This document shows, in pieces, positions 23,221 through 61,500 of a stretch of DNA of 64,000 nucleotides. The translations under genes and the position numbers were made by a program. Source of the stretch: a virus; IMG/VR virus record IMGVR_UViG_3300032242_000468, positions 32,001 through 96,000 of that record; one strand, given 5' to 3'. Position 1 is the stretch's first letter. Each line of letters opens with the position of its first letter. A model generated the notes under the pieces. It had not been told where the DNA came from and searched no databases. It was given only the letters and a program-made list of their open reading frames with translations.

Positions 23221-24195
23221 TTAGTTGTTAGCAATTTGAACAAATTGAGCACCATTTGTACTTACATATGGAGCACTAAAACTCCATGGAGCAGGTCTAA
23301 ATGATGAATAAACAGCAGTACTTGTATTTGTTCTGTTAACTAATAGTGCTTTATGAGCAGTTAGTTTCATAACATAATATGTTGCACCGGCTGTGTCTGT
23401 AGCAAGAACGTGCATGTTACCATGTGTAAGGGTATGTGCCGCACCTGTACCTGAACTTAAATGACAAACACCTACACCTTGTGAATTCACAATCAAGTAA
23501 CGACGCGATGATTCTTGTTTAATAATGTCACCACCTGTTACAGCACTTGATCCTGTTGTTAGGTAAGATGTAAATTTAATCGCGTTCTGACGATTTGTTG
23601 TTAAATTAACTGTACCTACAGGTGCGCTTGGGGCTCCACCGGTAACAATAGGAGTTTCTGTTCCAACGTAACCAGTACCTGGTGTAGTTACAGGAACTAT
23701 ACCATTCTTAACATGGAAGAATAAATCTACAAGGAATGTAGATGTTGTTCCAGGACCGCTTACTTTAGTAGCATTAATACCTTGTGTATATCCGTTTGTT
23801 CCACCTGTTGGGAAAACAGTAATACCAGATCCTGCATTAGTAAATGTGAAGATTGCGTTTGAACCTGCAATGTTCCAAACTGTAAACTGTGCGCCACCTG
23901 TGGTAGGATATGTGAATATATCACCTACTGCTAGGTTACCGCCTCCACGAGATTTACCAGCACCAGTTGACATTGTAATTGCTTCGTATGTAACTGTGCC
24001 AGCAACTGCTTGTTGACCTTCAGCAATTGTTGGAGCAGGGGCTGTGATTGTTACCGGAGCAAGCATACTACCAGCATTGCTTAAAAAATTTAGACTGGCA
24101 AGACCTTCTCCACCAACACCCGATAATTGATCATATAAATCAGTGTATGGGTAATTTGTATTACCGAAATATTTCTTTTTAATTGGACGTCCCAT
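23221..24195 (-). CDS. Putative head-associated structural protein (324 aa)
   Basis: Directly downstream of the capsid gene, with its own late promoter, strong SD (AAGGAG) and terminator. Gly/Thr-rich. Confidence 0.65.
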   Translation of the reverse strand: MGRPIKKKYFGNTNYPYTDLYDQLSGVGGEGLASLNFLSNAGSMLAPVTITAPAPTIAEGQQAVAGTVTYEAITMSTGAGKSRGGGNLAVGDIFTYPTTGGAQFTVWNIAGSNAIFTFTNAGSGITVFPTGGTNGYTQGINATKVSGPGTTSTFLVDLFFHVKNGIVPVTTPGTGYVGTETPIVTGGAPSAPVGTVNLTTNRQNAIKFTSYLTTGSSAVTGGDIIKQESSRRYLIVNSQGVGVCHLSSGTGAAHTLTHGNMHVLATDTAGATYYVMKLTAHKALLVNRTNTSTAVYSSFRPAPWSFSAPYVSTNGAQFVQIANN

Positions 24196-24215
24196 TTTGT
24201 TTCTCCTTAATGTTG

Positions 24216-24257
24216 TGAGCGTTCTAGGCTCTACGCGGATGGTACCGCATAAACTCA
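24216..24257 (-). ncRNA. Candidate structured 5' leader of the 324-aa gene
   Basis: UGAG/CUCA outer stem, 9-bp inner stem UUUAUGCGG/CCGCGUAGA with G-U pairs and a one-sided GCCUAGAAC bulge, placed between TAAATA and the SD. Confidence 0.45.
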
Positions 24258-24279
24258 GTTAAAATGATAACCGGCTTGT

Positions 24280-34749: not shown

Positions 34750-34968
34750 TTGTCAATGACTATGGAAGACATAGTCGAACTCGTTCAGCGCATGGAAGTT
34801 GAGACAAAAGCCATCAAACAAGAACTCTATAAATTCTGTTGGTACATGCGAGGTAGTCTATCATTTACCGAAGCCTATGATCTAGAAATAGGCGATAGAG
34901 AAATACTGGGAAAAATAATAGAAGACAACTTAGACACAACTAAGAAATCTGGACTTCCGTTCTTTTAA
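34750..34968 (+). CDS. Small tail chaperone extension/gp51-like protein (72 aa), possibly reached by -1 frameshift
   Basis: In the -1 frame relative to the upstream gene; that frame is open from 34729. Confidence 0.65.
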   Translation: MSMTMEDIVELVQRMEVETKAIKQELYKFCWYMRGSLSFTEAYDLEIGDREILGKIIEDNLDTTKKSGLPFF

Positions 34969-36167
34969 ATCATTCCTCTTAGGAATCTACTGTAGTATTG
35001 GATTCCCTCTTTTGCATATTCTTGGTTAGAATCAAACTTACTTGCGGCTCGTGCTTTTTGACTTGCCGCAAGATTGGATCTTAGTTTAGCCGTTTGATCT
35101 TGGCTAGATGTAGTAGGATTAGTAGTATTTGGAACAACATTAACTGCTTTAGAATTTAATGGCTTAGACACATTTTTCATCGTGTTAGGATCAAAGCGTG
35201 TAGTAACACCGTAATTAGCCTTACCGTTACCAATTTGATTATTATAACTTCCGCCTGCTCGTTGAAGTGGAATCATTTTTCCTGTTTCATCATCATACGT
35301 TCCACCTGCATCTTGATGTGCTTTCATTTCTGCGTCAGTATAATTAGGATTTCTTTTAGATTTTTGTTGTGTAGGGGCCGGTAAAGATAGAGGATTAGTA
35401 GTTGACTTTGTCTTAGGTTCAACATCTGTAACATCTGCGTTAGGTTTAGCAGATGTAGATTGTTTATTATTTGGGTTGTTAGGGTCGGCTTTGTGAACTA
35501 GGCCTGTTGATGTTTGATTTATTTGTCCGTTTGTGCTTGACGGAGTGCTTACATTATCAGCAGGAGTCTCTGGAGCCGATGCTTGCTGAGTTTGATTTGG
35601 TTGAGCCTGAGATGCTTGCTGAGTTTGATTTGGTTGAGCCTGAGATGCTTGCTGAGTTTGATTTGGTTGAGCCTGAGATGCTTGCTGAGTTTGATTTGGT
35701 TGAGCCTGAGATGCTTGCTGACCAGAAGTAGCGTTTCCTGTGCTTTGGTTAGGTTGCGTTGTCTGTTGAGAAGGTGCTGATTGAGAAGTCTGTTTTTGTT
35801 GGCGCTCAATTTCGTCTGCTCTTGCCATTAAATCTCTAGCCTGTTTTCTCAAGGTAGCAGGATCTTCTGCACTCTGTCCTGCTACAGCCTGTGCTTGACC
35901 TGCCGCTGATTGTTGTCCTGAGGGTTGATATTGAGTACCGCCTTGTTGTGGTGTCTCATCAGGACCTCCAGCAATAGTATCAGATGCTCTGTTATATCCT
36001 TTTTTAATAGATCGAGCAATACCTGCTGGTACACCTGCTACTGCACCTATTCCTTGTCCTACTGCTCCAATACCTTTACCTATAGCGGCACCTACCTGTC
36101 GAGTTTTATCCCATATAGGTCCTTCTTCTAGATCAAAATCTTCAGATATAACTTCATGTAGCCTCAT
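34965..36167 (-). CDS. Low-complexity Q/S/T-rich protein (400 aa), probable internal head protein
   Basis: MRLHEVISE N-terminus resembles T4-type capsid-targeting/protease-cleaved leaders; perfect TATAAATA promoter upstream; contains an 11-aa tandem repeat. Confidence 0.6.
   Translation of the reverse strand: MRLHEVISEDFDLEEGPIWDKTRQVGAAIGKGIGAVGQGIGAVAGVPAGIARSIKKGYNRASDTIAGGPDETPQQGGTQYQPSGQQSAAGQAQAVAGQSAEDPATLRKQARDLMARADEIERQQKQTSQSAPSQQTTQPNQSTGNATSGQQASQAQPNQTQQASQAQPNQTQQASQAQPNQTQQASQAQPNQTQQASAPETPADNVSTPSSTNGQINQTSTGLVHKADPNNPNNKQSTSAKPNADVTDVEPKTKSTTNPLSLPAPTQQKSKRNPNYTDAEMKAHQDAGGTYDDETGKMIPLQRAGGSYNNQIGNGKANYGVTTRFDPNTMKNVSKPLNSKAVNVVPNTTNPTTSSQDQTAKLRSNLAASQKARAASKFDSNQEYAKEGIQYYSRFLRGMI
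35578..35721. repeat. 33-bp perfect tandem repeat, 4.4 copies (encodes QQASQAQPNQT)
   Basis: Unit GATGCTTGCTGAGTTTGATTTGGTTGAGCCTGA at 35578, 35611, 35644 and 35677, plus a 12-nt partial copy. Confidence 0.95.
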
Positions 36168-36187
36168 ACAAATTCCTTAAGATGATT

Positions 36188-36195
36188 TATTTATA
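36188..36195 (-). promoter_or_regulatory. Late promoter, full T4 consensus TATAAATA
   Basis: Exact consensus 20 nt upstream of ATG 36167, followed by the SD AAGGA. Confidence 0.8.
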
Positions 36196-36197
36196 TT

Positions 36198-36220
36198 CAA
36201 AAAGTGAACTACGTTCACTT
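36198..36220 (-). terminator. Hairpin plus U-tract closing the non-coding element
   Basis: AAGTGAAC-GTA-GTTCACTT-TTTG on the minus strand. Confidence 0.6.
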
Positions 36221-36625
36221 GCTCTTTCGTTTCACTCAGAGCATTTTTCTCATCGAAGATGTTTAGCATTATCCAGATTGTTCAGCCACACTTTGCCCAG
36301 AAAGGGCAAAATGAAAACATTATCCGAGTTGAACAATGCCACTTAGTAGTAGAGCGTTACAGAGGCGGTCATCCTGTACCTCGAGCTCAGTCTTTATATG
36401 ACGGCGGTTTACATAAATCTACTAACATTTACGCAAACGTAGGGGTTTTCTCCCTTCTTTTTACCTTTTTTCTTATCTTCTAACAATCAAACAGCAAGGA
36501 TTTTGCCATCTTGGTCCTGTGAAGGATACTGATTGAGAACTCTTTACGGCGAGAGATTTCCGTCCCTGCGACCCGAGGTCCAGGTTTAGGGCGCACGATG
36601 TTCGCTTGCGCTTGCCTTTTACCGT
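36200..36625 (-). ncRNA. Large (~430 nt) structured non-coding RNA candidate, family unknown
   Basis: The only long gap in the window. It has about ten stems, G-U wobbles favouring the minus strand, a 7-bp loop pseudoknot, duplicated motifs and a terminal terminator-like hairpin. Confidence 0.65.
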
Positions 36626-37051
36626 TTAAGATTTTAAAATATGTGAGCCATGGACACGGACTTGTATATGCCCGTTATAATATTCATCTGTTTCTAATAC
36701 TTTGCGGTCGAATTGTTCACGGGCCTCAATGTACGATGTTTCTGCTTTACTTTTACAATAATGTAGTATTTGTCTTGTGAAATTTTCTTTGCCTAACTTC
36801 TCAACATCTGCTGTTAAGTTAGGGCTTGAGCCATAATATTCTTGCCAATCTGAGTCAATTTTGCTACGAATCTTCTTCTTTTTCTTTGTGCCGTTCTTTA
36901 ATTTTACAGTTTTATAAGTTGTTTTACTAAATTTTGCTAACTTTTTACCTACGTACTTACGTCCTGTTAAGTTATTTGTAATAAGATAAACAAAGCCTAC
37001 ACAGTCTTCAGGGAGCATCTCCACTATCTGGTTCTGGTAAGTCCATGTCAT
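36626..37051 (-). CDS. Compact GIY-YIG family endonuclease (141 aa)
   Basis: GFVY-x9-KYVG, YYGSS, F-x-R-x-IL, conserved Glu (SYIEARE) and YYN; Lys-rich insertion; no C-terminal DNA-binding repeats. Confidence 0.8.
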   Translation of the reverse strand: MTWTYQNQIVEMLPEDCVGFVYLITNNLTGRKYVGKKLAKFSKTTYKTVKLKNGTKKKKKIRSKIDSDWQEYYGSSPNLTADVEKLGKENFTRQILHYCKSKAETSYIEAREQFDRKVLETDEYYNGHIQVRVHGSHILKS

Positions 37052-37379
37052 CCTCTTTTTGTACCTTTTTAAACACCTGTACGTACTTTAATCTTTCAAG
37101 TTCGTTCACTTTCTTTGACCAACGACGCTTGTCCACTTCTGTGATCAACGTTCTTATTTCACCAACATCTTTGTACAATACGGTGCACTGCTTCTTAAGA
37201 GCGCTGACACTGAGTTGTAATTCGTAAGCAGTTTCTTTATTTGGATATTCCATGTAGGCTACTTCGGCATTATGAATACGAAGTACCATAGCAAGGTAAT
37301 CTGAATAGTGATCACTATGCTTGTTTAGCCTATCCTCTATATGAGGGGTGCTATTCTTGAAATAATTAGCCCTCGACAT
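37008..37379 (-). CDS. Hypothetical helical protein (~123 aa; probable start ATG 37379)
   Basis: Fills the gap between gp46 and the nuclease with short overlaps. The track start (37436) overlaps gp46 by 71 nt. Confidence 0.55.
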   Translation of the reverse strand: MSRANYFKNSTPHIEDRLNKHSDHYSDYLAMVLRIHNAEVAYMEYPNKETAYELQLSVSALKKQCTVLYKDVGEIRTLITEVDKRRWSKKVNELERLKYVQVFKKVQKEDDMDLPEPDSGDAP

Positions 37380-39153
37380 AGTCTGTATCTGTTGCGTAAC
37401 TGGTAAATCCGTTTTCTTTGATAACTTTGAGCACATTATTTACGCGGCCAATCAATTCATCCTTGTGAGATATTAGATAAATGTTCTTGTTTCGTTCGCG
37501 TGCCATCTTTTTAAGCACAGCAATGCCTGCTTCCACGCCTGCGGCATCCATTCCTGAGTCAATAAGTTCATCAATAAACAGTAAATTGATATGTTGATAT
37601 AAGTTTTCCCAAACATCACGGAATGCCCAAGACAAACTTAAGATCAATCTGTTGCGTTCTCCACGTGATAAGTTATCAAAGTCTAAGTCTTGACCCAGTT
37701 GAGTGATCTCAACTGATAGGTCGTTTAAGAATTTAACCTGATGTGGTAAGCCCATCTTGCCAATATAATAGTCTAATCTCTTGTTTAGATAGTTCAAATT
37801 CTGATCAATGATCTTCTTACGAATGAAACTGTCCTTGTTAGTCAATAGTTTAAGCAAGAATTCCTGATGATCTTTGATATTTGTTAGTTCGTTCACAGTA
37901 TCCCAAGTAATTTCTTGTAGGGCCGTGTTCTTTAAATCATCGATCTGTTCTTCGTAAGGGTTATTTTCAGCAATTTTATCATCTAAGTTACTCTTTAAAT
38001 TGTTTAAATTGCTTTGATGTGCGGTTGCTTCTGCTTCTGTATCATAAAATGTAATAGGTTTCTTAGGTTGTTCACCAATTCCGTCTATTTCATCTAAGAT
38101 CTTTTGTAGGTCTTCGCCTACTTTTGTAAAGTAGTTAGCGGCATCCAAGGCATTCTTCTCTGCGACTTCGGACATTTCTTCATGTTTGTGATCGTGAAGT
38201 GCTTGTTCACAAGCAGGACAGGTCTTGTCTTTAAGTTTTTCTAATTCTTTGGTATACTTGTCTAATGCTTTCTCTGCTTGAATAACAGCAGATTCTAAAG
38301 TTGCCTTCTGTTTGTTTAGCCCGCGGATTTTATTATCATTGTCATTCCACAGTTTAATATCTACGTGTGCTTGTAATTCTGTTTGAATATCTACACTTTC
38401 TAATTGTGAGATGGCTTTATTAAATTTATCTATGTCGTCTTGCTTTTTATTTGCCCATGCTTTGCTCTTTAAGACTAAACTATCAATGCTTTTCTGTACA
38501 TTTTCGTTTGCGGCTTTGGTAGCATCTATCTTGGCAGTTTCTTGTTGGATATTATCCTTAACTGACTTGATCTGTGCTTTGAGTAGTTCGCTCTTTTCAC
38601 TTAGGAGTGTAATACCAAGTAATTGCTCAATAACTTCTCGTTGATCTCCTGCCTTCATGCTTAAGAAGGGCTCTGTGTAAGTGTTTAGGGCCACAAGATG
38701 TTTAAACATTGTATGGCTCATTGCCAACAACTGTTCGATCGACTTTTGTGTTTCTCTGCTGTCGCCCTGAGCATCATCTTCTGCTTCTTCTGAAGTTTGT
38801 TCTTGATCGTTAACAAAGAACTTCAAAACATTGGGCTTGCGACCACGTTCGATCTTGTATTTTACACCGTTTTGCTCAAATTCAACAGTGACCAACATGC
38901 CTTTGCTGTTAGTTTTGTTAATTAAGTTCTCTTTACGGATGTTTGTTAGTGCTTGACCGTATAGGGCATAACTTAAAGCATTGATAATTGTTGTTTTACC
39001 CGTACCATTCCGTGATCCAGAGTCATCCCCTCCTAAGTCTAAGTTTTCACCTAAGACTAAAGTAAGTGCTTCTTTATCAAAATCAACTGCTTGTGTTTGA
39101 TTACCTACAGAGAGAAAGTTTTTAACTGTGATATTCTTGATGTGAAATGTCAT
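37366..39153 (-). CDS. gp46: Recombination endonuclease ATPase subunit (T4 gp46/SbcC/Rad50-like)
   Basis: KNFLSVGN, Walker A NGTGKTT, zinc hook CPAC, signature LSRGE, Walker B LLFIDE and ISH motifs. Confidence 0.95.
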   Translation of the reverse strand: MTFHIKNITVKNFLSVGNQTQAVDFDKEALTLVLGENLDLGGDDSGSRNGTGKTTIINALSYALYGQALTNIRKENLINKTNSKGMLVTVEFEQNGVKYKIERGRKPNVLKFFVNDQEQTSEEAEDDAQGDSRETQKSIEQLLAMSHTMFKHLVALNTYTEPFLSMKAGDQREVIEQLLGITLLSEKSELLKAQIKSVKDNIQQETAKIDATKAANENVQKSIDSLVLKSKAWANKKQDDIDKFNKAISQLESVDIQTELQAHVDIKLWNDNDNKIRGLNKQKATLESAVIQAEKALDKYTKELEKLKDKTCPACEQALHDHKHEEMSEVAEKNALDAANYFTKVGEDLQKILDEIDGIGEQPKKPITFYDTEAEATAHQSNLNNLKSNLDDKIAENNPYEEQIDDLKNTALQEITWDTVNELTNIKDHQEFLLKLLTNKDSFIRKKIIDQNLNYLNKRLDYYIGKMGLPHQVKFLNDLSVEITQLGQDLDFDNLSRGERNRLILSLSWAFRDVWENLYQHINLLFIDELIDSGMDAAGVEAGIAVLKKMARERNKNIYLISHKDELIGRVNNVLKVIKENGFTSYATDTDYVEG

Positions 39154-40163
39154 AGATTATGGTAAATGTCCAATAATAATTTTTTATCAAATGCTTCTGA
39201 GTCAATATTAACCAATTGTTCTGTTACAATTTGGTCCACTGATTCAAACTTAGAGTCAACTGCGTCTTCAACAACGCCCTCTAAGTTCTCACGTTCCTGA
39301 ATTAACTGTAGTTCACGAATGTCTTTAGCGGCCATAAAGGTTTCTTTTAGGAAATTGGCTTCTTCAAAACTAACATTACAGTCTAGGTTTACTTTGAGAT
39401 ACATTTTGTCCTGTAGGATTGTATCTTGTTCGTCGATCAGTTTACTAAGTTTAAGAGTACGGAACTTAGGAGCATCAGGCCAAGCCATGTACTGTGGCTC
39501 TCCGCCCCATTCCATATACATCATACCTCGGTCGTCATCCCAAGTATCAGCAAAGTTATGCGGAAACGCATTGCCGATATAGTGAATGGTTCCGGACTTT
39601 TGTCTTTTGTGGAAGTGCCCGCTGAAAATATATTCAGGGCCGCTAAAGTCTTCCGCTTTCAACTCGCCGTGGTCGGGCATCTGCACCATAGCGTTCATAT
39701 AAAACTTGGGCAATTCAAAATGTCCGAACACATACCGGCTCTTGACTGTTTTCATTGCTCGCCACTCATCTCCTACAAGCCAAGGTACAAGTGTAACATC
39801 TTCTATGGTTGTAACATTGTCTACAACTGTTACACCCGGAATGTGGCGTCCAAACATCGAACTGTGAACATCACGTTTGTCTTTGTAAAAGAGATCGTGA
39901 TTGCCTGGAAACCAGAAGAACTTCTCAAATGCGGCACCTAATTTTTCTAAACATCGCAGAGAAGTATCTAATGTAATTAGATTGATTGAGTTTCGATTGT
40001 GATGCCAATCGCCTAAAAATATACAAGTTTCACAGCCTTTGGCCTGTGCCTCAGCAATAAACCAGTCTACAAAATCTTCGCAGTCCTGGTTATGAGTTGC
40101 CGAGTTTGACTTTAAGCCAAAATGTATGTCAGTGAAACACGCTACCTTTTTGAATAATCCCAT
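39150..40163 (-). CDS. gp47: Recombination endonuclease nuclease subunit (T4 gp47/SbcD/Mre11-like)
   Basis: TDIHFG, LGDWHH, GNHD, GHFE and SGHFH metallophosphoesterase motifs; overlaps the gp46 start (ATGA). Confidence 0.95.
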   Translation of the reverse strand: MGLFKKVACFTDIHFGLKSNSATHNQDCEDFVDWFIAEAQAKGCETCIFLGDWHHNRNSINLITLDTSLRCLEKLGAAFEKFFWFPGNHDLFYKDKRDVHSSMFGRHIPGVTVVDNVTTIEDVTLVPWLVGDEWRAMKTVKSRYVFGHFELPKFYMNAMVQMPDHGELKAEDFSGPEYIFSGHFHKRQKSGTIHYIGNAFPHNFADTWDDDRGMMYMEWGGEPQYMAWPDAPKFRTLKLSKLIDEQDTILQDKMYLKVNLDCNVSFEEANFLKETFMAAKDIRELQLIQERENLEGVVEDAVDSKFESVDQIVTEQLVNIDSEAFDKKLLLDIYHNL

Positions 40164-40183: not shown

Positions 40184-40212
40184 AGTTTAACAGACAGAAT
40201 GGCAAAGGTCAA
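40184..40212 (-). promoter_or_regulatory. Sigma70-type promoter for gp47-gp46-nuclease
   Basis: TTGACC-17 bp-TAAACT with an extended -10 TGn, followed by the SD AAGGA. Confidence 0.7.
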
Positions 40213-41114
40213 GCCTCTTCTTCTTCAATATCTGTTTCTTTGCTCTTAGGCATACGGAACTTTTTGTACAGTTCGGCCTGTCGAGCCGTTTCGATAGCAA
40301 ACTGTTCTTTGTTCTGTCTGGTGTTACTTGGAGTAAGACCGTGTTCTTGTAGCATATCGTCTCGAATATTTTGATTTTTCTTTTCGATATTAAGAATACG
40401 AGTGAATGAATTGGTCACTGCGGCAGTATAGTAAGCAAAAGGATTTTCTGATTTGCTTTCATCAAACTGTAGACCAATTTGGCTTAATTGTAGGATAGCC
40501 TGTCCTTTCATTTCTTCAACGTAGGTGTATCCACGCCAGTTGGATCGTTGGGCATAACGTTCTGACAACTTAATAAACATCTTACCAAGGTTTTCAGTAA
40601 TACGTCCGTGATCTTTACTAAAGTGTCCTTTGTCTACTGACCCCTTCCAATGGCTCTTGCCTACACAGATTAATTCATCATTGTCATCAAATTTCCAATG
40701 CTGGAACGGTGGAAAGTTTACTTTATCGTGACTATCTGCTGTAGTTTTGGTTGTTTTCTTACGTCCCGGTGCAAGTGGAATATGCTCAAATGTCATAATA
40801 CGTATGACTAAATCTACTTTTGCTACGGTTTTGTAATCTGGAGTGCACTCTGCTAGTTTAATTTTTTTATCGCCTGCAAGTCTTGCTCGGGCAAATGCTT
40901 CTAGTCCTAGTCTTTTTGCTTTATTACGTTTTGCTTCTGCTATTGTTCTTATATTAATTTTGTCTAAATTAGAAAGGATAATATCGTGTTGACTGTATTC
41001 TGGTTTGGTAAAACTTGAAAATGTAATTTTTGATCTGTGTATCTCTGCTAGTAAATCCCTGTTGTTTAAGTATTTGACTTTGCGTCCAGTTGGGGATGTT
41101 GTTATTGTTGTCAT
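40209..41114 (-). CDS. gp55: Late-transcription sigma factor (T4 gp55-like) with large insertion; probable start ATG 41114
   Basis: KYLNNRDLLAEI, NWRGYTYVEEM and FDESKSENPFAYYT...F.RILNIEKK match the gp55 pattern. SD AAGGAG lies upstream of 41114. Confidence 0.85.
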   Translation of the reverse strand: MTTITTSPTGRKVKYLNNRDLLAEIHRSKITFSSFTKPEYSQHDIILSNLDKINIRTIAEAKRNKAKRLGLEAFARARLAGDKKIKLAECTPDYKTVAKVDLVIRIMTFEHIPLAPGRKKTTKTTADSHDKVNFPPFQHWKFDDNDELICVGKSHWKGSVDKGHFSKDHGRITENLGKMFIKLSERYAQRSNWRGYTYVEEMKGQAILQLSQIGLQFDESKSENPFAYYTAAVTNSFTRILNIEKKNQNIRDDMLQEHGLTPSNTRQNKEQFAIETARQAELYKKFRMPKSKETDIEEEEA

Positions 41115-41139
41115 TGGTATATGGACTCCTTTAGTAGTC

Positions 41140-41169
41140 ATTGTAGCATTTTTGCCACAGTGAGGTCAA
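41140..41169 (-). promoter_or_regulatory. Sigma70-type promoter for gp55
   Basis: TTGACC-18 bp-TACAAT with an extended -10 TGn; same -35 hexamer as the gp47 promoter. Confidence 0.65.
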
Positions 41170-52100: not shown

Positions 52101-52561
52101 GTTTGGTTCTTGAACCTATTAAATCTATTAGCGATCAATTGATTTATCAGTCAGTAAAGTATAAACCCTTATTTGGCCCACAAGCACCTTTAAATCTACA
52201 GGCAGTATTTAGAGTGGTAAAAAATAATTCGTTAAGTATTTCAGATAACGATATAAAAATAAAAGTTATAAGAGGCATAACTGATTTCTTTAAATTAGAT
52301 AATTGGGATTTTGGCCAGACTTTTTATTTTAGTGAATTATCTACATATATCATGAATTTGTTAACCCCTTATATTACTAATTTTATTATTGTGCCAAAAT
52401 CAGATATACCATTCGGCAGTCTTTACGAAATTGCCTGTCAGACAAATGAGATATTTGTTAGTTGTGCAACTGTTAATGATATTGAAATAATAGAAGCCAT
52501 AACAGCATCACAAATCAAGACAACAGCAACAATAGTAACCAGTTCTGTAGGAGTGTATTAA
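49121..52561 (+). CDS. gp6: Baseplate wedge protein (T4 gp6-like, enlarged, 1146 aa)
   Basis: YDFETLR, LIDLIAY, ENFLETAQRRDSILRLA, FADGAFGNLP and TQNRMVTAEDY motifs. Confidence 0.88.
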   Translation: MIPSTNSKLLVAEDWTKIYQSFNNSDFKSYDFETLRRTMIQYLRENYPEDFNDYIDSSEYVALIDLIAYLGQNLSFRVDLNARENFLETAQRRDSILRLAQLINYNPSRSVPASGLLKITSISTTDNVFDSAGINLANTSISWNDSTNVNWYSQFLSVLNSAMPANSTFGKPYDKSLIAGIPTERYQISSALNDVPIFGFSKSINGIPTSFEVVGATFANKNYIYESTPIPNANFDFLFRNDTRGNSSPNTGFFAFFKQGSLSSNQFAVDVPVQNEIVGVNVTNINESDVWLWQLDSNGNYNTLWTKVDAITGNNVIYNNVSNSERNIYAVSTRIQDQIDLNFADGAFGNLPKGNFVLYYRQSNGLSYAISPDQINGIQIKLPYYNKSGQKNILSLTLSLQYTVDNAAGSETDANIKLKAPQAYYTQNRMVTAEDYNISPLTAGTDILKVKSVNRISSGISKYYELNDISGKYSSVNIFANDGTIYKNNIIQQFNFTFNGRNDIYAILVNKIAPILQSNDLKHFYYDQYRRSSNYSSLIGGSKIIPTNVSWKMLTSTTNQTTGYFQNTLTSTPLPTGYFSSIELKYAITGALIKFTPPAGKFFLPNGKLTSLYDNTTRDYFWSSLVLTIGDGYNSGIGTLTDGTGPITLTNYVASGAVVSEIIPPIVTSLTPALQSEILNLCVGYRNFGLRFSRDDNSWYVINDTDLNVNSPFSLIYQGDTTNTNRDASWIFSFMWTGIDYEVKYRYVEYLFESVQETSFNYDNTAKKYDFVSNTIIKDIITVLKINDKGISPYSLGVDYLWQLDNNIIEADGYIEPKKVKISFYDSQDDGKIDDPDSFDLIVQPDSINAQTNYNYQFVYFQSSSDGLRYSIVDPSMFIAYPNETSIPSLLLREGQLYYLYDSAVNVVVRYSKFTPTPFTLQPQYFAKIGRRDLKFHYQHNSADDRRLDPSKTNLIDIYMLTGSYDTVYRSWLASGTGSEPMPPTSSSLEENYSLVLEPIKSISDQLIYQSVKYKPLFGPQAPLNLQAVFRVVKNNSLSISDNDIKIKVIRGITDFFKLDNWDFGQTFYFSELSTYIMNLLTPYITNFIIVPKSDIPFGSLYEIACQTNEIFVSCATVNDIEIIEAITASQIKTTATIVTSSVGVY

Positions 52562-55500
52562 TGCCCGCTAATGTTTCAAAGGTATCATATTTAGGAAGTA
52601 CTTCAACAAATAGAAGAACTATTGATTTATTACCTACTATTTTTAAAACAGATAGAAATGCCAAATTCCTAGCAGGCACAATTGATCAATACTTAGAACC
52701 GGCTAAAGTTGAAAGAGTTAATGGATGGGTAGGGACTAAAAATACTCCTACATATAATCCATCTACTGACAATTATATTCCTACCAATTCACCTTTAAGA
52801 TCTGCATATCAGGTTGAGCCTGCTCTCATTGTAAATGATGCTAATTTAAAGCCCCAAGAAACATTGGCTTATGACGACTTAATTAATCAATTAAAATTTA
52901 ACGGTGCTAATGTTTCAAATTTAGGTAAACTTTTTAATCCTGAATTTTATTCTTATAATCCAAATATAAATTGGGACAAATTAGTTAACTTTGAAAAATA
53001 TTATTGGATGCCTTACGGCCCTGATGTTGTAACGGTCACTGGTCAATTAAAAAATACTATTAGCAGTTATACGGTTAGTGATGCTAACGGTAATTTTTTG
53101 TTTACTCCTGATGGTTTAACTGAAGCACCCCAGTTAACACTTTATAGAGGTGTTACTTATATTTTTAACATTAGAAGTACAAAAAAATTCTGGATTAAAA
53201 CACAACGTGTTGCAGGTACTGATTCGCCTTTCCGTGTTATAACAACTAACGGAATTTCACATGGTCAAATTATTTTCACTGTAGACGAAAACACACCTAA
53301 AAAATTATTTTATGTTGCCGAAGACAATGTGTTAAATGGCGGCGAGATCGTTATTGAGTCTATAGAAGATAATAGCAATTTAAATGTTGTAAATGATATT
53401 ATTGGTAAATCAACCTTTACATCAGGAAACGGAGTTATATTTTCTAATGGTATGCGTGTTTCTTTTGCCGGAAATATTACCCCTGCAGAATATCAAACTG
53501 GTGAGTATTTTGTTGAAGGTGTGGGATCTGAAATTAAATTAATAAATGCGGCATCTCTAGAAGTTCCCGAACAATTTATCAGCAATTTAGATGATAATTT
53601 TGACGGTGCTCCGTTTGACGATTATCCTTTTGATACTTTTATTAATGCTCCATTAACTCCGGAATATGTTACTATTGATCGATCAAGCATTGATAGAAAT
53701 CCCTGGACTAGATACAATAGATGGTTTCACGAAGATGTAATTATTTCTTCTGCAACATATAATAACAGAACTCCGGTATTGCCAGTAGAGTTGAGAGCAA
53801 AGAGACCTATTGTAGAATTTCTTCCTAATTTACAATTATTTAATTTTGGTTCTTTAGCAGTTGAAAATGTGCAACATCTTGATAGTACTACAACTGATGT
53901 CTTTAATTCTATAGAAGGATCGGAAGGTTTTTATGTAGATGGAGTGGAACTGGCCAACGGTGATAGAATCATTTTTACAGCAAACACTGACAACTATGTT
54001 AATCGACGAGTTTGGATTGTTAATTTTGTACAGGTAGATGGTAAATTAAAAATTGCATTAGTTGAAGATACAGAACTTTCTATAGGTACTAATGTTGTTA
54101 TTACTCAAGGAGCTAAACACAAGGGGTCTAGTTGGTGGTTTGATGGAATACAATGGGTATATGCTCAACAAAAGATTGTGTTAAATCAAGCACCTAGATT
54201 TGATGTATTTGATAGCGAAGGTTACGGATTAAGTGACACAGCAAAATATCAAAGTAATTTTACAGGAACAAAAATATTTGGGTACGGAATTGGTACCGGC
54301 GTTAGTGATAGTATTTTAGGTTTTCCTTTAAAGTATCAAAGTGTTGCTGATCAAGCATTTTATCTATTTGAAAATTATTTTACTCAAGATCAAATCACAG
54401 TTGTTAATGGGAATCAAACTTCTTATATTTCGTTATCTACAAATTATTTGAAGAAAAATAGTGCAACAGGATATAGTTATATAAACATATGGGAAGAATC
54501 TCAATCATATACAACTCCTATATTACAATCAGTAGTTCCTACTTCTCCTGCAACTGTTTTAGAAATAACATGTGTTGATTTTCCGGCTTATCAAAGCCTA
54601 ACACTAGAAGTATATCGTAATAATATTAAACTTTTTGAAAATATTGATTATACTAGATATGTAGATACCTCTAGATTGTTTGTACTGTTTACAAAATCTA
54701 TTCAAACTACTGATCATATTTTATTCAAAGTTTATGGAAATGCTGTTCCTAATAGCAACGGGTTTTATGAAATATCTCCTGGATGGCTAAACAATCCAAT
54801 GAATGGTGATATTCAAGAATTTACACTATCTGAACTAACTGACCATTTTAAATCAATGGCAGATCGTAATCCTAAATTTACAGGAAATTATCTAGGATCT
54901 AATAACAGTAGAGATCTAATTAATTTTGCCTCTTATGGTACTCGTCTTATAAAAAATAAAAATCCATTAGCATTTGCAGGATATTTTATTACTGACCAAA
55001 CACACAATGTTATATCTGCTGTCACTACTGTAGAACGTCACTATAATCAATTCAAATTAGGATTTATATCACAAGCAACTGCTTTAAAAGGAATCTATAA
55101 ACCCTCTAAGGCTGTTGATATAATTCTTCATAATATGAATTTGGCTAAGAATCCGTCGTCCCAATATTATCATTCAGATATGTTGGCTTACGGGCCTGAT
55201 GTAATTTCGAATACTATTACAGTTACAGATTCTCGTAACACTATGTACGGATTGAATTCTACATATGTTTCCGGAGTTAATAATCCTAGATCAGTTATTG
55301 TTTACCATGTTCCGGCATCAACTGGACTAGAATATCAATTATTTTACGGGCATGATTATATATTTGATCAGTACGACCCAACAGTTGTAATTACAAAACC
55401 GTTGGTCAAGGGAGATAAAATAATTATTTGCGACTATCCTAGTACTGATGGTAGTTTTATTCCTCCTACACCTACTAAATTAGGTCTATATCCTAAATTT

Positions 55501-58500
55501 ACTCCTGCAATTTATTATGATGATTCGTATTCAGGAGATCCTAAACTAGTAATTAGAGGTCACGACGGCAGTATCTCTTTAGCATTTAATGATTATCGAG
55601 ATCAGATAATATTAGAGTTAGAAACTAGAATTTACAATAATATTAAAGTTAATTATAATCCAGAACTTATAAACATTCACTCTGTAACTCCTGGGCGTTT
55701 TAGAACAACTAAAATAGTAAAGACTACAGTTAATAATATTTTAAGAAGTCAATTCTTAAAATGGAATAATTTTTATGGATTTGATTATGAGTTAAATGAC
55801 ACTTATTCTGATGATCCTAAAACATGGAATTTTATAACAGCAAATGACCCTGCAACTAAAATACCGCTGTATGGAAACCATAGAGGAATTTATTCTTATT
55901 ATTTTGATACAACTACTCCCCATCTAACTCCGTGGGAAATGTTAGGATTTAGTGAAATGCCTGCATGGTGGATTGATACCTACGGCCCTGCTCCATATAC
56001 CAGCGGAAATTTAATTCTATGGGATGACCTTGAAAAGGGTTACGTCAGAGATCCTATGAATTCTCGTATAAATCCTTTATACGTAAGAACAGGGTTATCT
56101 AAAATTATTCCAGTAGATGAATACGGCAATTTGTTAGATCCTGCTGCCTCTAACATAGCACAAAATGTAAATCCTAATTCAATTAATTTAAATTGGAAAT
56201 TTGGTGATCAAGGACCTGTTGAAACAGCATGGCGTAGAAGTAGTCACTATCCATTTAGTATTCAAATATTAATGGCTTTAAGTAATCCTGCCAATTATGC
56301 TAGTTTGATGTTTGATACCAGTAGAATAAGTATAAATCCTGCATCACAGTATGTTTATAGTGAAACTAATAATTTTTTAAAATTATCTGATCTAGTAATC
56401 TATGGTGATACTATTAATGGTTCTATTGTAAGAGCAACAGGTTATTCTGCTATGCTTGTAGAAACAGGAAAAATTAAAAGTCTAACTTATATTGCTGACT
56501 TAAAAACTTATCTATCTAATATGACAATGCAATTGTTGACCAAGGTAGGTGGATTTGTCAGCAAAGATAAATTAGAAATAATAATTGATTCTATTAATCC
56601 GGCCAGTGTTAATCCTGGAGTTGCATTAAGTAACGAAGACTATCAAATTTTCTTAAATCAAAGTAGTGTTGTAGATAGTATAGGTGTATCTGGAATTATA
56701 ATACAAAAAACAGATACGGGATATATTTTACGAGGGTACGATAATACTGAACCTTATTTTACATCTTTTACTCCTATACCCGGGGGAGCAATTACTATTG
56801 GCGGGGCAAGTGAACCTTTTGTCAAATGGGCGGCAAGTAGTCCTACTGATTCGGGTCTTACACCCGGAGAACTATCAACAGCAGTAACGGCTAACACAGG
56901 ATACATATTTTATAAAGCAGGACAAGTAGTATATTATAACGGTCGTTATTATAGAGCAAAAGTTGGTCATACCAGCGGTTCTACATTTAATATAAATTAT
57001 TTCCAACCATTACCGGCTCTGCCGCACATAGGCGGTATTTCTGTAAATACTCCTGTTAAATTTGATACAACTCCTGTTGTGACACCTTATGGTGTTACAT
57101 TTTCAACTTACCAAGAAGTTTACGACTTGATTGTAGGTTACGGTTCTTGGTTAGAAAGTCAAGGTGTAATTTTTGACGAATACAATTCTGATCTAAATGA
57201 TATCATGAATTGGAACTACACCGGAAAAGAATTTTTATATTGGGCCAGTCAAGGTTGGTCTTCTAATAGTATAATAACGTTAAGTCCTTTTGCTAATAGT
57301 TTACAGTATCAAAATTCTACAGCAATGGTTGACGATCTAGGAAATACAGCCTATGAATATAGTGTCTTAAAAGCAGATGGGAAACCATTACCGATCCATA
57401 ACCTAAATGCAATAAGACAGGACGGTACAATAAGTGTATCAACTAGAAATACAAATGATGGAATTTATTTTATTAGATTTAATAGTGTTCAAAAAGAACA
57501 TAATCTTATTTTTAATAATACCAGTTTGTTTAACGACATAATTTACAATGTAGAAACTGGATATAGTCAACGTAGATTAAAATTAAATGGTCTTAGAACT
57601 TCTCAATGGGACGGTAGTTTATATAGTCCTGGATTTATCTATGACGAAGCAATGGTTGACAATTGGACTGAATATACAGATTACCATCCCGGCGATGTAG
57701 TTTTGTATTCTGGTAATTATTATTCTGCAATTAAAAAACTAACTGGAGTTAGTTCATTTAATTTTAATGATTGGCAATTATTAGACAAAAAACCTACGGC
57801 CCAATTGTTACCTAATTTTGATTATAAAATTAATCAATTCCAGGATTTCTATAGTCTTGATATTGATAACTTTGATTCCAATCAACAGGCATTAGCCCAG
57901 CACTTAATTGGTTATACACCTAGACCATATCTTGATAATATCTTTGCCAATCCAGTTAGCCAATATAAATTTTATCAAGGATTTATTAGAGAAAAAGGCA
58001 CACGTAATTCAATTACTAAACTAGCAAAGGCTAGTAAACAAACACTTGATAGTTATATAGATTATTATGAAGAGTGGGCATTCAGAGTAGGAGAATTTGG
58101 ATCATTTGATACTGATTATAGTATAGAATTAAATTTGGATGAAACAAAATTTGAACAAAATCCTCAAATAATTGAATTTATTCCAACTGCATTTGCCAGT
58201 TCTGCATTCCAAACTCGTATCTATCAAACCCCGTCAGACCTAATAATTAAACCTAACAATTATAATAGCCGACCTTTTGATACTACATCAACAGTATATT
58301 CTGATGTATTCAAATTACCGTATGCAGGATATGTTAGATTAAATGATGTAACTGCAACAGCCTTTAATAAAGCAACATTAACCAATATATCTAATAGTAG
58401 AGGATTATCTGATGGAGATACTATATGGATAGGATTTACAGAAAATCTTGGCTGGGATGTTTATAGGCATACAAAATTACCAGCAGTTGTTGTTGATGCA

Positions 58501-61500
58501 TCTATTGTTGTGCAAGGATCATCTCTCTTAATTACAACAGATTCCACACACAATTTAAAAGTAAATGATTATATTAATATAACACAATTTGATAATACTA
58601 TCAATGGAATTTATCAAGTTCAAAAAATTGTATCTAATACACAATTTATTGTTAAGTCAATACTTACAACTTTGCCCACTGCATTTTTTCCAGGTATAGG
58701 AATCCTATTTAAATTTGTATCAGTTAGATTTGAGTTTATAGATGATATTGCTAATCACCCATTAATAAACTCTCTCGGGTACGGTGAAAAACTATGGATT
58801 GATAATGACGGCTCAGGTAGGTGGCTTGTTTTAGAAAAACAACAACCATATAATATTTCTTCATATCAGCCTACATCAATAGAAATTGGGTCTAGCATTA
58901 ATTCTAGATTTTCAGAGCGTATTATCATAGATTCTACTGGTGAAAAAATTATTGTCAGTGCTCCAAATTATCAAAATACTTTTACAGGAATTGATGGGCT
59001 AGTCTATGCGTTACGTAAGAATGGCACAGGTACTAATTCTATTGTAAATGTATCTGAAATTAAATTAAATATTGACAAAATTGGGACTTACTATAGCACA
59101 ACCAGTTCGTCTGGATTTGGTAAAGCAGTGGCGTTTGATGCCGATAACGATATTATAATAGCAAGTGCACCATATGCTAGCGGAGTAAAATACACTACAA
59201 GTACCTCAACATTCTATAGTGTAACAATCAATGCCGCAACAGGAACTTATGTTAACCAAGGTTTAGTTAAATGGGAAACTATAAATTATGATTACGAAAG
59301 AGTAACAAATAATTTTGTTATTACTAGCCCTGAGCCTCAAAGTAATGCTTATTTCGGTTATGATCTATATTTAGGAAATATATCTCCTAGTGAAAAATTA
59401 CTGGCGGTCACTAGCCCTGGTCAAAATTCTAATGCAGGTGCAGTTTATTGGTCGAGATATTCTGTTACCACTACAAATACAGTAGTATATATTAATACAA
59501 TTACTAACACACAACATAAATTAGATCCAATAGAACAACAACCTGTGTCTGGCGATCAATTTGGGTATGCTATATCTGGAGATCTAAAAGGAAATAACTT
59601 AGCAGTAAGTGCTCCTGGGTTAACTGACGGGTCTGGCGGAGTTTATATTTTTACCTATGAACCTATTAATTCTAGATTTACAAATACACAACTCATAAGA
59701 GCAATCGATTTAGGAGTTACCTATACCGGTGTAGGTTTTGGTAATTCAATATTGATTGATAACACAGGCAGATTTTTGTTTATAAGCGCATCTGGTTCTT
59801 TAGATACAGATTACAAGGTTGGAAAAGTGTTTGTATTTTCACGTGTTTACAATGAGTTTGTTTACAGCCAAACACTAGTATGTCCTTTTGATAATTCCGG
59901 ATTTTTCTTTGGATCAAATTTATCAATTTCGCCTAATGGTAAATCTTTATATATTTCTAGTAGTCAAGCATCGACTCAACCAGATATTACATTTGAAAAA
60001 TATAGTAATACCTATAAATCTTCTTATATAAATGATCCTAATAGTACGCCTACAGTAACTCCTACAACGTTTGACGGGAAAACAACAAAATTTAAATCTA
60101 AGAGTATTATTGGGAATGGCTCAGTTTATGAATTTGAAAGATTAGACAACAAATTTTACTTTGCTCACGAAGTTAAAAATCCTAAACCTACATCCTATCA
60201 AAATTTTGGATCTAGTATAGCGGCTTCTAATTTTTGCGCCCTTATTGGATCTCCAGGGCAAGTAAATCAAACTGAATCTGTTGGTTATTTTAATATCTAC
60301 GACCATTCAAACCTTACATGGAATATACTAAGGCAAGAAGATAATCTTATAAATCTTACTAAAGTTAAAACTGCAAAAACAATCGATACTACTCAACAGA
60401 CTATAGTAGACTATCTTGAAATTTATGATCCGTTAAAAGGTCGTATTCCGGCACTGGCTGATCAAGAAATCAAATACAAAACAGCATTTGATCCTGCGGT
60501 TTATTCTATTGGTGTCCCTGGTGTAACTGTAGATACCAATACAAATTGGTTAGACGAACATGTTGGAGAGTTATGGTGGGATCTTAACTCAGTAAAATAT
60601 GTTTGGTATGAACAAGGCGAATTAGATTTTAGAAATAATTCTTGGGGTAATTTATTCCCTGGTTGCACGATCGATGTTTATGAATGGGTGTCTAGTACAA
60701 ATATGCCTAATCAGTGGAGTGCAATTGCAGATACTAATGCAGGGCTTGGCCAGAATATAAGCGGACAACCTAAGTTTCCTTCTAATTCTGTTCTTAGTAT
60801 TAAACAAGTTTATAATGCCACTACAAATGCTCTAACCAATATATATTATTTCTGGGTTAAGAATAAAATTACTATACCACAGGTACCTGGTAGAAGCATG
60901 AGTGCATATAATGTCTCTCAACTAATTGCAAATCCTAAATCGCAAGGAATGAAATATGTATCTTTGATTGCCAATAATGCGTTATCATTAACAAATATGA
61001 AACCTAGTGTTGTAGGAACTACTATCAATCTAAACATTGATATGGACTCTACTAATAATGTAGGTAATAAACATACAGAATGGTTGTTAGTACAAGAAGG
61101 CAATTCCAGTAGTCAATTTAATAATTCCTTAATCCAAAAATTCAAAGATAGTCTATTAGGAAGAGATAGTTTAGGTAATCCTGTACCTGATCCTGCACTA
61201 TCTGATAGATTAAAATATGGCGTAAGTATTCGTCCTAGACAAAGTATTTTTAAAGATAGATTCGCCGCTCTACGAACACTCACTGAGTATAGTAATGCAA
61301 CTTTAAGTACTATTAATTTTGTTGGTATTGACAATATAAATTATTTTACCTCAAGTGAAGCCTATGCCCAACCTGCCGAAGGTGTTTACGATGTAGTAGT
61401 TGATTCTGTAGTAGCACGAGATCAAACTATTATAACAAGAAAATTGGCACAGGCTGTTTTATCAGTCTCACTAACTTATGGAAGAATTACCGGAGTAACT

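Follow-up and report, generated by a model that had tools for sequence, protein, structure and literature searches.

Phages encode large, ornate RNAs of unassigned function such as GOLLD and ROOL, which often lie beside stable-RNA genes (PMC5737381). In phage T4, segB sits in the tRNA cluster (PMC2330249), and SegB amplifies adjacent tRNA and anti-defence genes, the co-localisation of seg and tRNA genes being significant (PMC13096335). The Polynucleobacter-1 RNA motif (RF01718) is listed in a 2010 catalogue for 'Burkholderiales, fresh water/estuary' in a row that appears to mark it yes as an RNA, yes as cis-regulatory and undecided as a riboswitch (PMC2864571). Here, we analyse a minus-strand RNA gene of about 420 nt (~36198-36625) that lies behind a small GIY-YIG nuclease gene of an uncultured freshwater T4-like phage. 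The window, i.e. the whole stretch of DNA analysed, comprises 64,000 nt (positions 32,001 to 96,000) of the 119-kb IMG/VR virus record IMGVR_UViG_3300032242_000468, which has a completeness estimate of 34%. We find that Polynucleobacter-1 makes up only the first third of this RNA, and that the conserved 3' part carries two boxes that are identical to each other and vary among relatives.

Results

A conserved and pseudoknotted RNA follows the nuclease gene

Relatives of the locus were collected in two scans. A scan of viral contigs with the nuclease gave at least 600 stretches, 587 of which were confirmed and the best 80 of which (74-88% identity) were kept. The second scan, which is independent of the nuclease because its pattern was taken from the invariant domain-2 loop, gave at least 120 stretches, and 119 re-matched the pattern. 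Full flanks were available for 153 loci, of which 137 were non-redundant at 97%. For covariation, 40 sequences hand-picked from 102 at <80% pairwise identity were aligned with MAFFT, and this alignment was not fitted to the structure.

In the aligned relatives, conservation spans the region from the nuclease stop codon to about position 36200 and ends at the next gene. In the window, 458 nt separate the nuclease stop (36626) from the start of the following gene (36167) on the minus strand, and an earlier model-made description of the window (henceforth, the initial annotation) had correctly placed the RNA in this gap and on this strand. Protein coding in the gap was rejected, as it contains only short, non-conserved open reading frames (ORFs).

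In the 40-sequence alignment, 83.3% of the cells of the named structure were paired compared with 68.0% in shuffles (0 of 500), and only 40-47% were paired when the partners were slid by 1-3 columns. Moreover, 415 doubly changed cells were observed whereas 147 were expected. Covariation supports the AGGG/CCCU hairpin, the 12-bp stem, the GAGC/GCUC helix with the GAGG/CCUC helix that it encloses, and the terminal hairpins, all of which had been proposed in the initial annotation. The proposed pairing between the loop of the 12-bp stem and a downstream segment (PK1, Table 1) has double changes at 7/7 pairs and was found independently by RNAalifold. By contrast, the proposed crossing UACA/UGUA helix is not conserved, and the crossing helix that covaries is GUCAU/AUGAC (PK2); likewise, an inner GCCC/GGGC hairpin was recovered, whereas the outer AUUGUUCA/UGAACAAU helix said to enclose it is present only in a subset. 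Beyond the 5' third, two pseudoknots and five hairpins are backed by covariation.

Among the other elements, GAGG/CCUC (99% paired), the 3' mini-hairpin (99%) and the terminator-like hairpin (95%) are best supported. Lower scores (60-64%) were obtained for the first hairpin, for the one at 36251-36261 and for the outer helix at 36238-36242/36221-36225, partly because MAFFT misaligns divergent clades. The loop of the mini-hairpin is a GAA triloop here and has four bases in most relatives. In the 137 sequences, mutual information recovered most of the helices of the initial annotation as well as GUCAU/AUGAC, and the pairs 36625:36546, 36623:36548 and 36622:36549 formed by the 5' leader were among the top signals with 71-95% standard pairs. 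RNAalifold, applied to the 40-sequence alignment, returned 32 pairs, 21 with compensatory changes, and left the boxes unpaired. The fold of the single sequence had a z of -2.67, and 1 of 100 shuffles was equally good; because this is only mildly above chance, the structural support comes from the comparison. In total, the comparison of homologues shows that the RNA is real, with a fold that contains two or three pseudoknots.

The 5' domain is a known motif and is exchanged for others

In a search of the whole window at gathering scores, RF01718 matched positions 36481-36616 (minus strand) with 107.6 bits against a gathering score of 37, covering model positions 1-141 of 141. The nested CCUG-GACC hairpin, the CUCU/AGAG hairpin and the three-way junction described in the initial annotation are exactly the RF01718 consensus structure. 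Thus, contrary to its statement that no named family could be matched, the 5' third does belong to one; the statement holds for the remaining ~285 nt, which are without an Rfam family. RF01718 was present in 36 of 50 related records.

No family beyond RF01718 was detected at E ≤0.1. At E ≤10, the only other row for positions 36100-37100 was cow-rumen-2 (RF02947), and HEARO or other guide-RNA families, self-splicing introns and known ribozymes gave no Rfam match; among GOLLD, ROOL, HEARO, group I/II and RNase P, HEARO (RF02033) is the one confirmed as present in the Rfam set searched. Membership of cow-rumen-2 was rejected, as the match has 22.8 bits against a gathering score of 66 (E 0.12), and this family gave no row at E ≤1 in seven divergent loci or three type-D loci (see below). 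The available text of PMC10690425 mentions neither GIY-YIG nor Polynucleobacter. Thus, as far as Rfam 15 and the literature searched extend, the RNA beyond its first third is undescribed.

In one clade, which includes a complete 346-kb genome, domains 2 and 3 lie behind another 5' domain and RF01718 is absent (type-B). In another clade (type-D), only domain 3 is present, behind an unrelated 5' part of ~330 nt without an Rfam match. Both clades keep domain 3, i.e. the boxes, the inter-box hairpin and the 3' hairpins. This domain is thus the core common to all the RNAs, and it is joined to at least four different 5' domains.

The ~330-nt 5' RNA domain is conserved in the type-D loci L002, L018, L019, L037 and L066, where it lies between the nuclease region and domain 3, starts with AACACCUAAGGUUAGCGGGCCAG, has no Rfam match at E ≤1, and follows a small Cys-rich ORF in 3/5 loci.

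Domain 3 carries two identical boxes

The strongest non-Watson-Crick signal in the 137 sequences is an identity of 0.98-0.99 between the columns 36325/36274, 36324/36273, 36321/36270 and 36319/36268. These columns belong to two boxes (Table 1): in 133 of the 137 non-redundant homologues, the seven bases after CUC are the same as the seven bases after UCU, and they occur in 12 variants. The four exceptions are L043, which has a one-base difference, L084, and L158 and L189, which are not homologues. A 13th variant, ACAUGAA, was present in both boxes in 5/5 type-D loci shown. An A precedes the triplet of both copies in 131/133 sequences; directly after the box, copy 1 has G and copy 2 has A in 111/133. 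Each box is part of one of two equivalent modules, AAGUG(UG)RC, 5-8 nt, A-YYY-box, and each module follows the 3' strand of a helix. Because the two segments co-vary by identity and not by complementarity, which is a rare signal, a single outside reader is expected to see both boxes. Moreover, the fixed differences between the copies (CUC versus UCU at all three positions; G versus A after the box) are all transitions, and we therefore infer that wobble pairing could allow a single partner, 5'-N7'-GGG-U, to bind the two of them.

Two homologues with similar RNAs tend to have the same box: this was the case for 30/30 pairs at ≥95% RNA identity, 11/12 at 90-95%, 15/19 at 85-90% and 17/42 below. 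Thus, the boxes change at about the pace of the whole RNA, which fits neutral drift with a co-inherited partner.

Inside the RNA, no column pairs with the boxes. In 1,085,862 nt of flanks, 9 sites for the own box were present compared with 59 for 11 other boxes; similarly, the 119-kb record of the phage itself and two complete genomes (346,856 and 345,154 bases) gave as many matches as their controls. The two complete genomes are only ~71% identical over 129 kb and, thus, too divergent for the comparison of a third co-varying site.

Several candidates were rejected. A 13/13 wobble match at 35465-35477 (plus strand) is within control counts (4 matches versus 10 in the control). A second 'twin box' in G060 is located in coding sequence without a match to the RNA model. 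A role of the boxes as a stop codon or as a site of ribosome hopping (NNA-UAA/UGA with the 51-nt gap) is incompatible with the variants ACGAAAU and AGUUGAA, which break the pattern, and the median open length of the upstream frame is only 6 codons, which argues against translational reading of the boxes. Finally, T-arm, anticodon-loop and anti-Shine-Dalgarno partners were ruled out by inspecting the variants of box and flanks.

The nuclease and its association with the RNA

The 141-aa protein matched PF19835 (SegE_GIY-YIG) with an E of 7.9e-33 over residues 3-129, and no second Pfam family; among PHROGs, it matched phrog_447 and, more weakly, three homing-endonuclease PHROGs. The GIY, YIG, Arg, Glu and Asn positions were invariant in a five-sequence alignment. 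A search of PDB sequences with the nuclease gave nothing below E 0.25. The protein, thus, has the SegE-type catalytic domain of seg-type enzymes and, in agreement with the initial annotation, is a GIY-YIG domain without a separate targeting or DNA-binding domain. The very basic insertion that had been singled out is present but is conserved across the family, including homologues without such an RNA; in these homologues, the basic stretch is ~6 residues shorter than here.

Among 100 loci identified by the RNA and with at least 800 nt upstream, the GIY-YIG gene was directly upstream in 84 and separated by one extra unrelated ORF in seven (together 91/100). A PDDEXK_15 nuclease (PF24608, E 2.5e-29) occupied its slot in three loci. 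No nuclease gene was present in six, one of which was spurious, leaving five real cases; the records of these five, which are only 9-26% complete, contain no homologue elsewhere. In two of the loci without the nuclease gene (L103 and L177), a near-consensus sigma-70 promoter (TTGACA/TTGACT, 16-17 nt, TATAAT) lies immediately before the RNA. Conversely, the RNA was detected in 57/57 loci identified by the nuclease and with at least 1500 nt downstream, 48 by the domain-2 pattern and nine by a profile of domains 2 and 3. In total, a large pseudoknotted RNA directly behind a compact GIY-YIG gene, as the initial annotation had it, is real and tightly syntenic. Fifteen nuclease pairs at 93-98% identity accompany different boxes.

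The nuclease family was present in 501 cultured-phage records, 339 of them of Synechococcus phages. The nearest cultured homologue (53.6% identity) is from Methylophilales phage Melnitz-3, in which the 148-nt downstream gap is without a related RNA. In S-SSM4, the homologue lies 194 nt upstream of tRNA-Arg with no such RNA nearby. Members of this small GIY-YIG family (phrog_447) are often annotated as 'NAD synthetase' (e.g. NC_020875.1 150222-150656), which looks like a propagated misannotation.

In L126, L095 and L172, ORFs of 356 (without a Pfam family), 275 and 329 aa lie between the nuclease gene and the RNA. As three unrelated ORFs thus occupy the same junction in separate contigs, this junction behaves as a hotspot of insertion. 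In L134, which has the RNA and no nuclease gene, a permuted two-piece tmRNA of the alphaproteobacterial type (92.5 bits) and a tRNA are present (3911-4304 and 5169-5240). AGGCACA(C/T)TTA-like repeats occur in the 100 nt upstream of the RNA in L094, L146 and L134, and six tandem copies of a 14-nt unit precede the RNA in L093; these repeats may be phage-specific promoter or regulatory repeats.

Genomic context and occurrence

The hairpin and U-tract (36203-36219, UUUU) together with the TATAAATA box, which resembles the T4 late-promoter consensus, separate the RNA from the next gene, and the ATAAATA block of this box was conserved in 42 aligned loci. In 24/97 loci, a convergent gene comes next and directly adjoins the RNA. 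Because the terminator-like hairpin and the late-promoter box precede the next gene, and because this gene is convergent in these loci, the RNA is not a 5' leader. Promoter-like sites in the region were not above shuffles (13 observed versus 14.0 expected). In the window locus, the RNA lacks a sigma-70-like site immediately in front of it, which makes co-transcription with gp47 and gp46 plausible.

A blastn search with the locus against cultured phages gave no match. In bacterial genomes, six of 120 pattern matches were real; four of these are short contigs of metagenome bins, one labelled Polynucleobacter, and the other two are L323 (4474 bases) and L327 (6025 bases). The stretch or part of it is contained in 16 DNA runs labelled lake-water, freshwater, aquatic or plain metagenome, six of which have at least half of its words; all six runs with a lake water or freshwater label are among the ten that have the largest shares. 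In four lake metatranscriptome runs, contigs of relatives cover the nuclease gene and parts of the RNA without giving ends or strand; these data are contigs only, mostly <90% alike, and parts not covered are uninformative.

Elsewhere in the window, freshwater-2 RNA (RF02980) matched positions 24193-24269 (minus strand) with 58 bits against a cut-off of 49.9, and ARAGORN found no tRNA or tmRNA. At 52561-63999 (plus strand), one open frame of at least 3813 aa runs off the window end directly after a 1146-aa ORF. The 400-aa gene downstream of the RNA, which has no Pfam or PHROG family, encodes four tandem copies of the 11-residue Q/N-rich unit QQASQAQPNQT (35549-35730, minus strand).

Table 1. 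Positions in the window of RNA elements and surrounding genes
Feature	Position	Strand	Basis or remark
gp55-like late sigma factor	40209-41141	-	phrog_12791
gp47	39150-40163	-	Metallophos
gp46	37366-39153	-	Rad50-like
142-aa ORF	between gp46 and GIY-YIG gene	-	without family
141-aa stand-alone GIY-YIG nuclease gene, SegE-type	36626-37051	-	PF19835, phrog_447
5' leader ACGG	36622-36625	-	directly after stop codon; candidate pseudoknot with CCGU 36546-36549 in the CUCU/AGAG hairpin loop
Domain 1, Polynucleobacter-1 RNA motif (RF01718)	36481-36616	-	cmscan full-length match
Domain 2, double-pseudoknot module	36334-36480	-	pair counts, mutual information, RNAalifold
Domain-2 hairpin	36452-36455/36441-36444	-	
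Domain-2 12-bp stem	36427-36438/36407-36418	-	
PK1 (loop pseudoknot)	36419-36425/36343-36349	-	92% paired
PK2 (GUCAU/AUGAC crossing helix)	36398-36402/36368-36372	-	88% paired
Domain-2 helices	36385-36388/36352-36355 and 36379-36382/36362-36365	-	
Domain-2 invariant loop GGUAC.GG...ACCGCC	within 36334-36480	-	
Box 1 GGAUAAU	36319-36325	-	after invariant A-CUC (36326-36329); unpaired in consensus fold
Inter-box hairpin, UUUGCCC/GGGCAAA core	36289-36313	-	85% paired, 5 pairs with double changes; RNAalifold agrees
Box 2 GGAUAAU	36268-36274	-	after invariant A-UCU (36275-36278); 51 nt past box 1
3' hairpins	36198-36261	-	pair counts and sequence
3' hairpin	36258-36261/36251-36254	-	
3' outer helix enclosing 2-bp mini-hairpin	36238-36242/36221-36225, enclosing 36234-36235/36229-36230	-	
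Terminator-like hairpin	36213-36219/36203-36209	-	followed by UUUU
T4-type late-promoter-like box TATAAATA	36188-36195	-	outside RNA, marks its downstream limit; precedes next gene
400-aa downstream gene	34965-36167	-	without family; variable, frequently missing in relatives

Discussion

With moderate confidence, we propose that the element is a stable, modular and trans-acting phage RNA, the boxes of which are read by an outside partner, and that the GIY-YIG gene is a domesticated seg-type neighbour. The RNA would be made at the 3' end of a gp47-gp46-nuclease transcription unit or, at loci that lack the nuclease gene, from an early promoter of its own, and would end at an intrinsic terminator. 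It would act in trans on its own, with both boxes being read by one outside partner, most likely via base pairing. This partner is probably not phage-encoded, and a host nucleic acid is favoured. By analogy with segB and the tRNA genes, the GIY-YIG gene would be a neighbour of a stable-RNA gene that may favour the inheritance or amplification of the locus, and its product would not be an RNA-guided enzyme.

Several observations weigh against this proposal. No partner for the boxes was found in the RNA, the flanks, the phage's own record or the two complete phage genomes; the pace of box change fits neutral drift with a co-inherited partner, yet the two complete genomes show no such site above control. 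Expression of the RNA is weakly supported, by the metatranscriptome contigs of relatives. A seg-type homing enzyme would be expected to have a DNA-binding domain, which the nuclease lacks. Finally, the adjacency of the two genes is above that of a typical mobile endonuclease, and the stop codon abuts the first helix of the RNA; thus, a functional tie between nuclease and RNA is possible.

One such tie would be a ribonucleoprotein in which the RNA scaffolds or guides the GIY-YIG enzyme and the boxes are duplicated guides on a pseudo-symmetric scaffold for a dimer. The tight synteny (84 adjacent and seven spaced loci of 100; nuclease-first loci 57/57), a nuclease that consists of the catalytic domain only, variable and single-stranded boxes between invariant bases, and a basic loop that is ~6 residues longer in the RNA-associated clade are all in keeping with it. 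However, the variable boxes have no complementary target in the flanks, the phage's own record or the two complete genomes, and some loci keep the RNA although the neighbouring gene encodes a PD-(D/E)XK nuclease or no nuclease gene lies close by. Moreover, 501 cultured-phage records contain the nuclease family, and neither of the two loci inspected (Melnitz-3 and S-SSM4) has the RNA. Near-identical nucleases accompany different boxes, as would be expected of a guide, but this also shows that the protein does not read the boxes. We know of no RNA-guided GIY-YIG enzyme. We therefore regard a ribonucleoprotein as very unlikely, and the suggestion in the initial annotation that the RNA guides or scaffolds the nuclease, or is a new ribozyme, is left without support. 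We give even less credence to the idea that domain 3 is a programmable module in which two identical guides of 7-11 nt on a knotted pseudo-symmetric scaffold recruit two GIY-YIG copies, or another effector, to N7'-GGG-U in the host or a rival phage; if true, it would be the first RNA-guided GIY-YIG system.

Alternatively, the boxes could be two identical sites to which a phage or host protein binds as a dimer or cooperatively, which would make the RNA a decoy or an assembly platform. The two equivalent modules, each after the 3' strand of a helix, and the lack of a nucleic-acid partner in our searches are compatible with protein binding; nevertheless, 13 box variants among close relatives would demand repeated changes in protein specificity, and module differences that are all transitions fit wobble pairing better, making protein sites unlikely. 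A cis-acting element, i.e. a leader of the downstream gene or a 3' untranslated region that stabilises or regulates the mRNA of the nuclease operon, appears quite improbable. The RNA begins right at the nuclease stop codon, and in the catalogue the 'y' for Polynucleobacter-1 stands in what we take to be the cis-regulatory column. However, a terminator-like hairpin and the next gene's own late-promoter box intervene, the downstream gene varies and gives way to a convergent one in 24/97 loci, L103 and L177 each have a promoter for the RNA itself, and the size and knots of the RNA are beyond the needs of a stabiliser. Highly improbable, in our view, is an element that acts at the level of DNA or polymerase (origin, primer RNA or template-switch signal), in which the identity of the repeats would matter as in retroviral R repeats. 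The conserved relation between the boxes is indeed identity and not complementarity, and the locus lies at a switch of gene orientation. By contrast, cumulative GC/AT skew does no more than track gene orientation, helices that covary and contain G-U pairs reflect selection on an RNA fold, and the flanking CUC/UCU would probably mismatch in a direct realignment; also, no polymerase or reverse transcriptase was present among the ORFs listed within ~2 kb upstream of the RNA in 12 loci or the seven probe proteins of the window, although no search was aimed at them.

The analysis turns an orphan Rfam motif into one interchangeable front end of a much larger and very common phage RNA (the nuclease scan alone matched at least 600 stretches of viral contigs), and identifying the reader of the boxes would define a new RNA mechanism between phage and host or between phages. 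Moreover, it removes the tempting but unsupported reading of an RNA-guided GIY-YIG enzyme and links the locus to the recently described seg-type nucleases that flank stable-RNA genes.

Among described systems, segB of T4/T6 is the nearest precedent, as a seg-type GIY-YIG gene adjoins stable-RNA genes in a T4-like phage; in addition, the cyanophage homologue of the present nuclease lies upstream of a tRNA gene. However, the neighbour here is one large knotted RNA and not tRNAs. SegB is larger than the 141-aa nuclease. Amplification or homing of the RNA locus was not seen, with a single match in each of the 80 loci listed. IscB and TnpB with their omega-RNAs (HEARO, RF02033) likewise combine a compact nuclease gene with a large structured RNA; the nuclease fold is different, however, HEARO has no match here, the variable segment of the present RNA is internal and duplicated instead of lying at the end of the element, our searches gave no target, and some loci have the RNA but not the nuclease. 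The c4 antisense RNA of P1/P7 has a conserved scaffold on which short, variable, single-stranded seeds set specificity, and its two seeds are different and have matching sites in the same phage. By contrast, the boxes described here are identical and have no matching site in the two complete genomes. Compared with GOLLD and ROOL, the RNA is smaller and has twin boxes, and the Rfam search gave no match to them in sequence or structure. To cow-rumen-2, it shows a weak full-length alignment over 36334-36438, with the hairpin loop UUAG, CCGCC and ACAGGAUGACC common to both; however, the match is far below the cut-off and the enclosing helices are unlike. Finally, Polynucleobacter-1 has a full-length and high-scoring member here, shares the freshwater habitat, and is likewise an orphan in function. 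The position of this member is unlike that of a 5' leader, and what the catalogue lists covers no more than the first third of an RNA of ~420 nt, the conserved core of which is the uncatalogued 3' part that is found with other 5' domains too.

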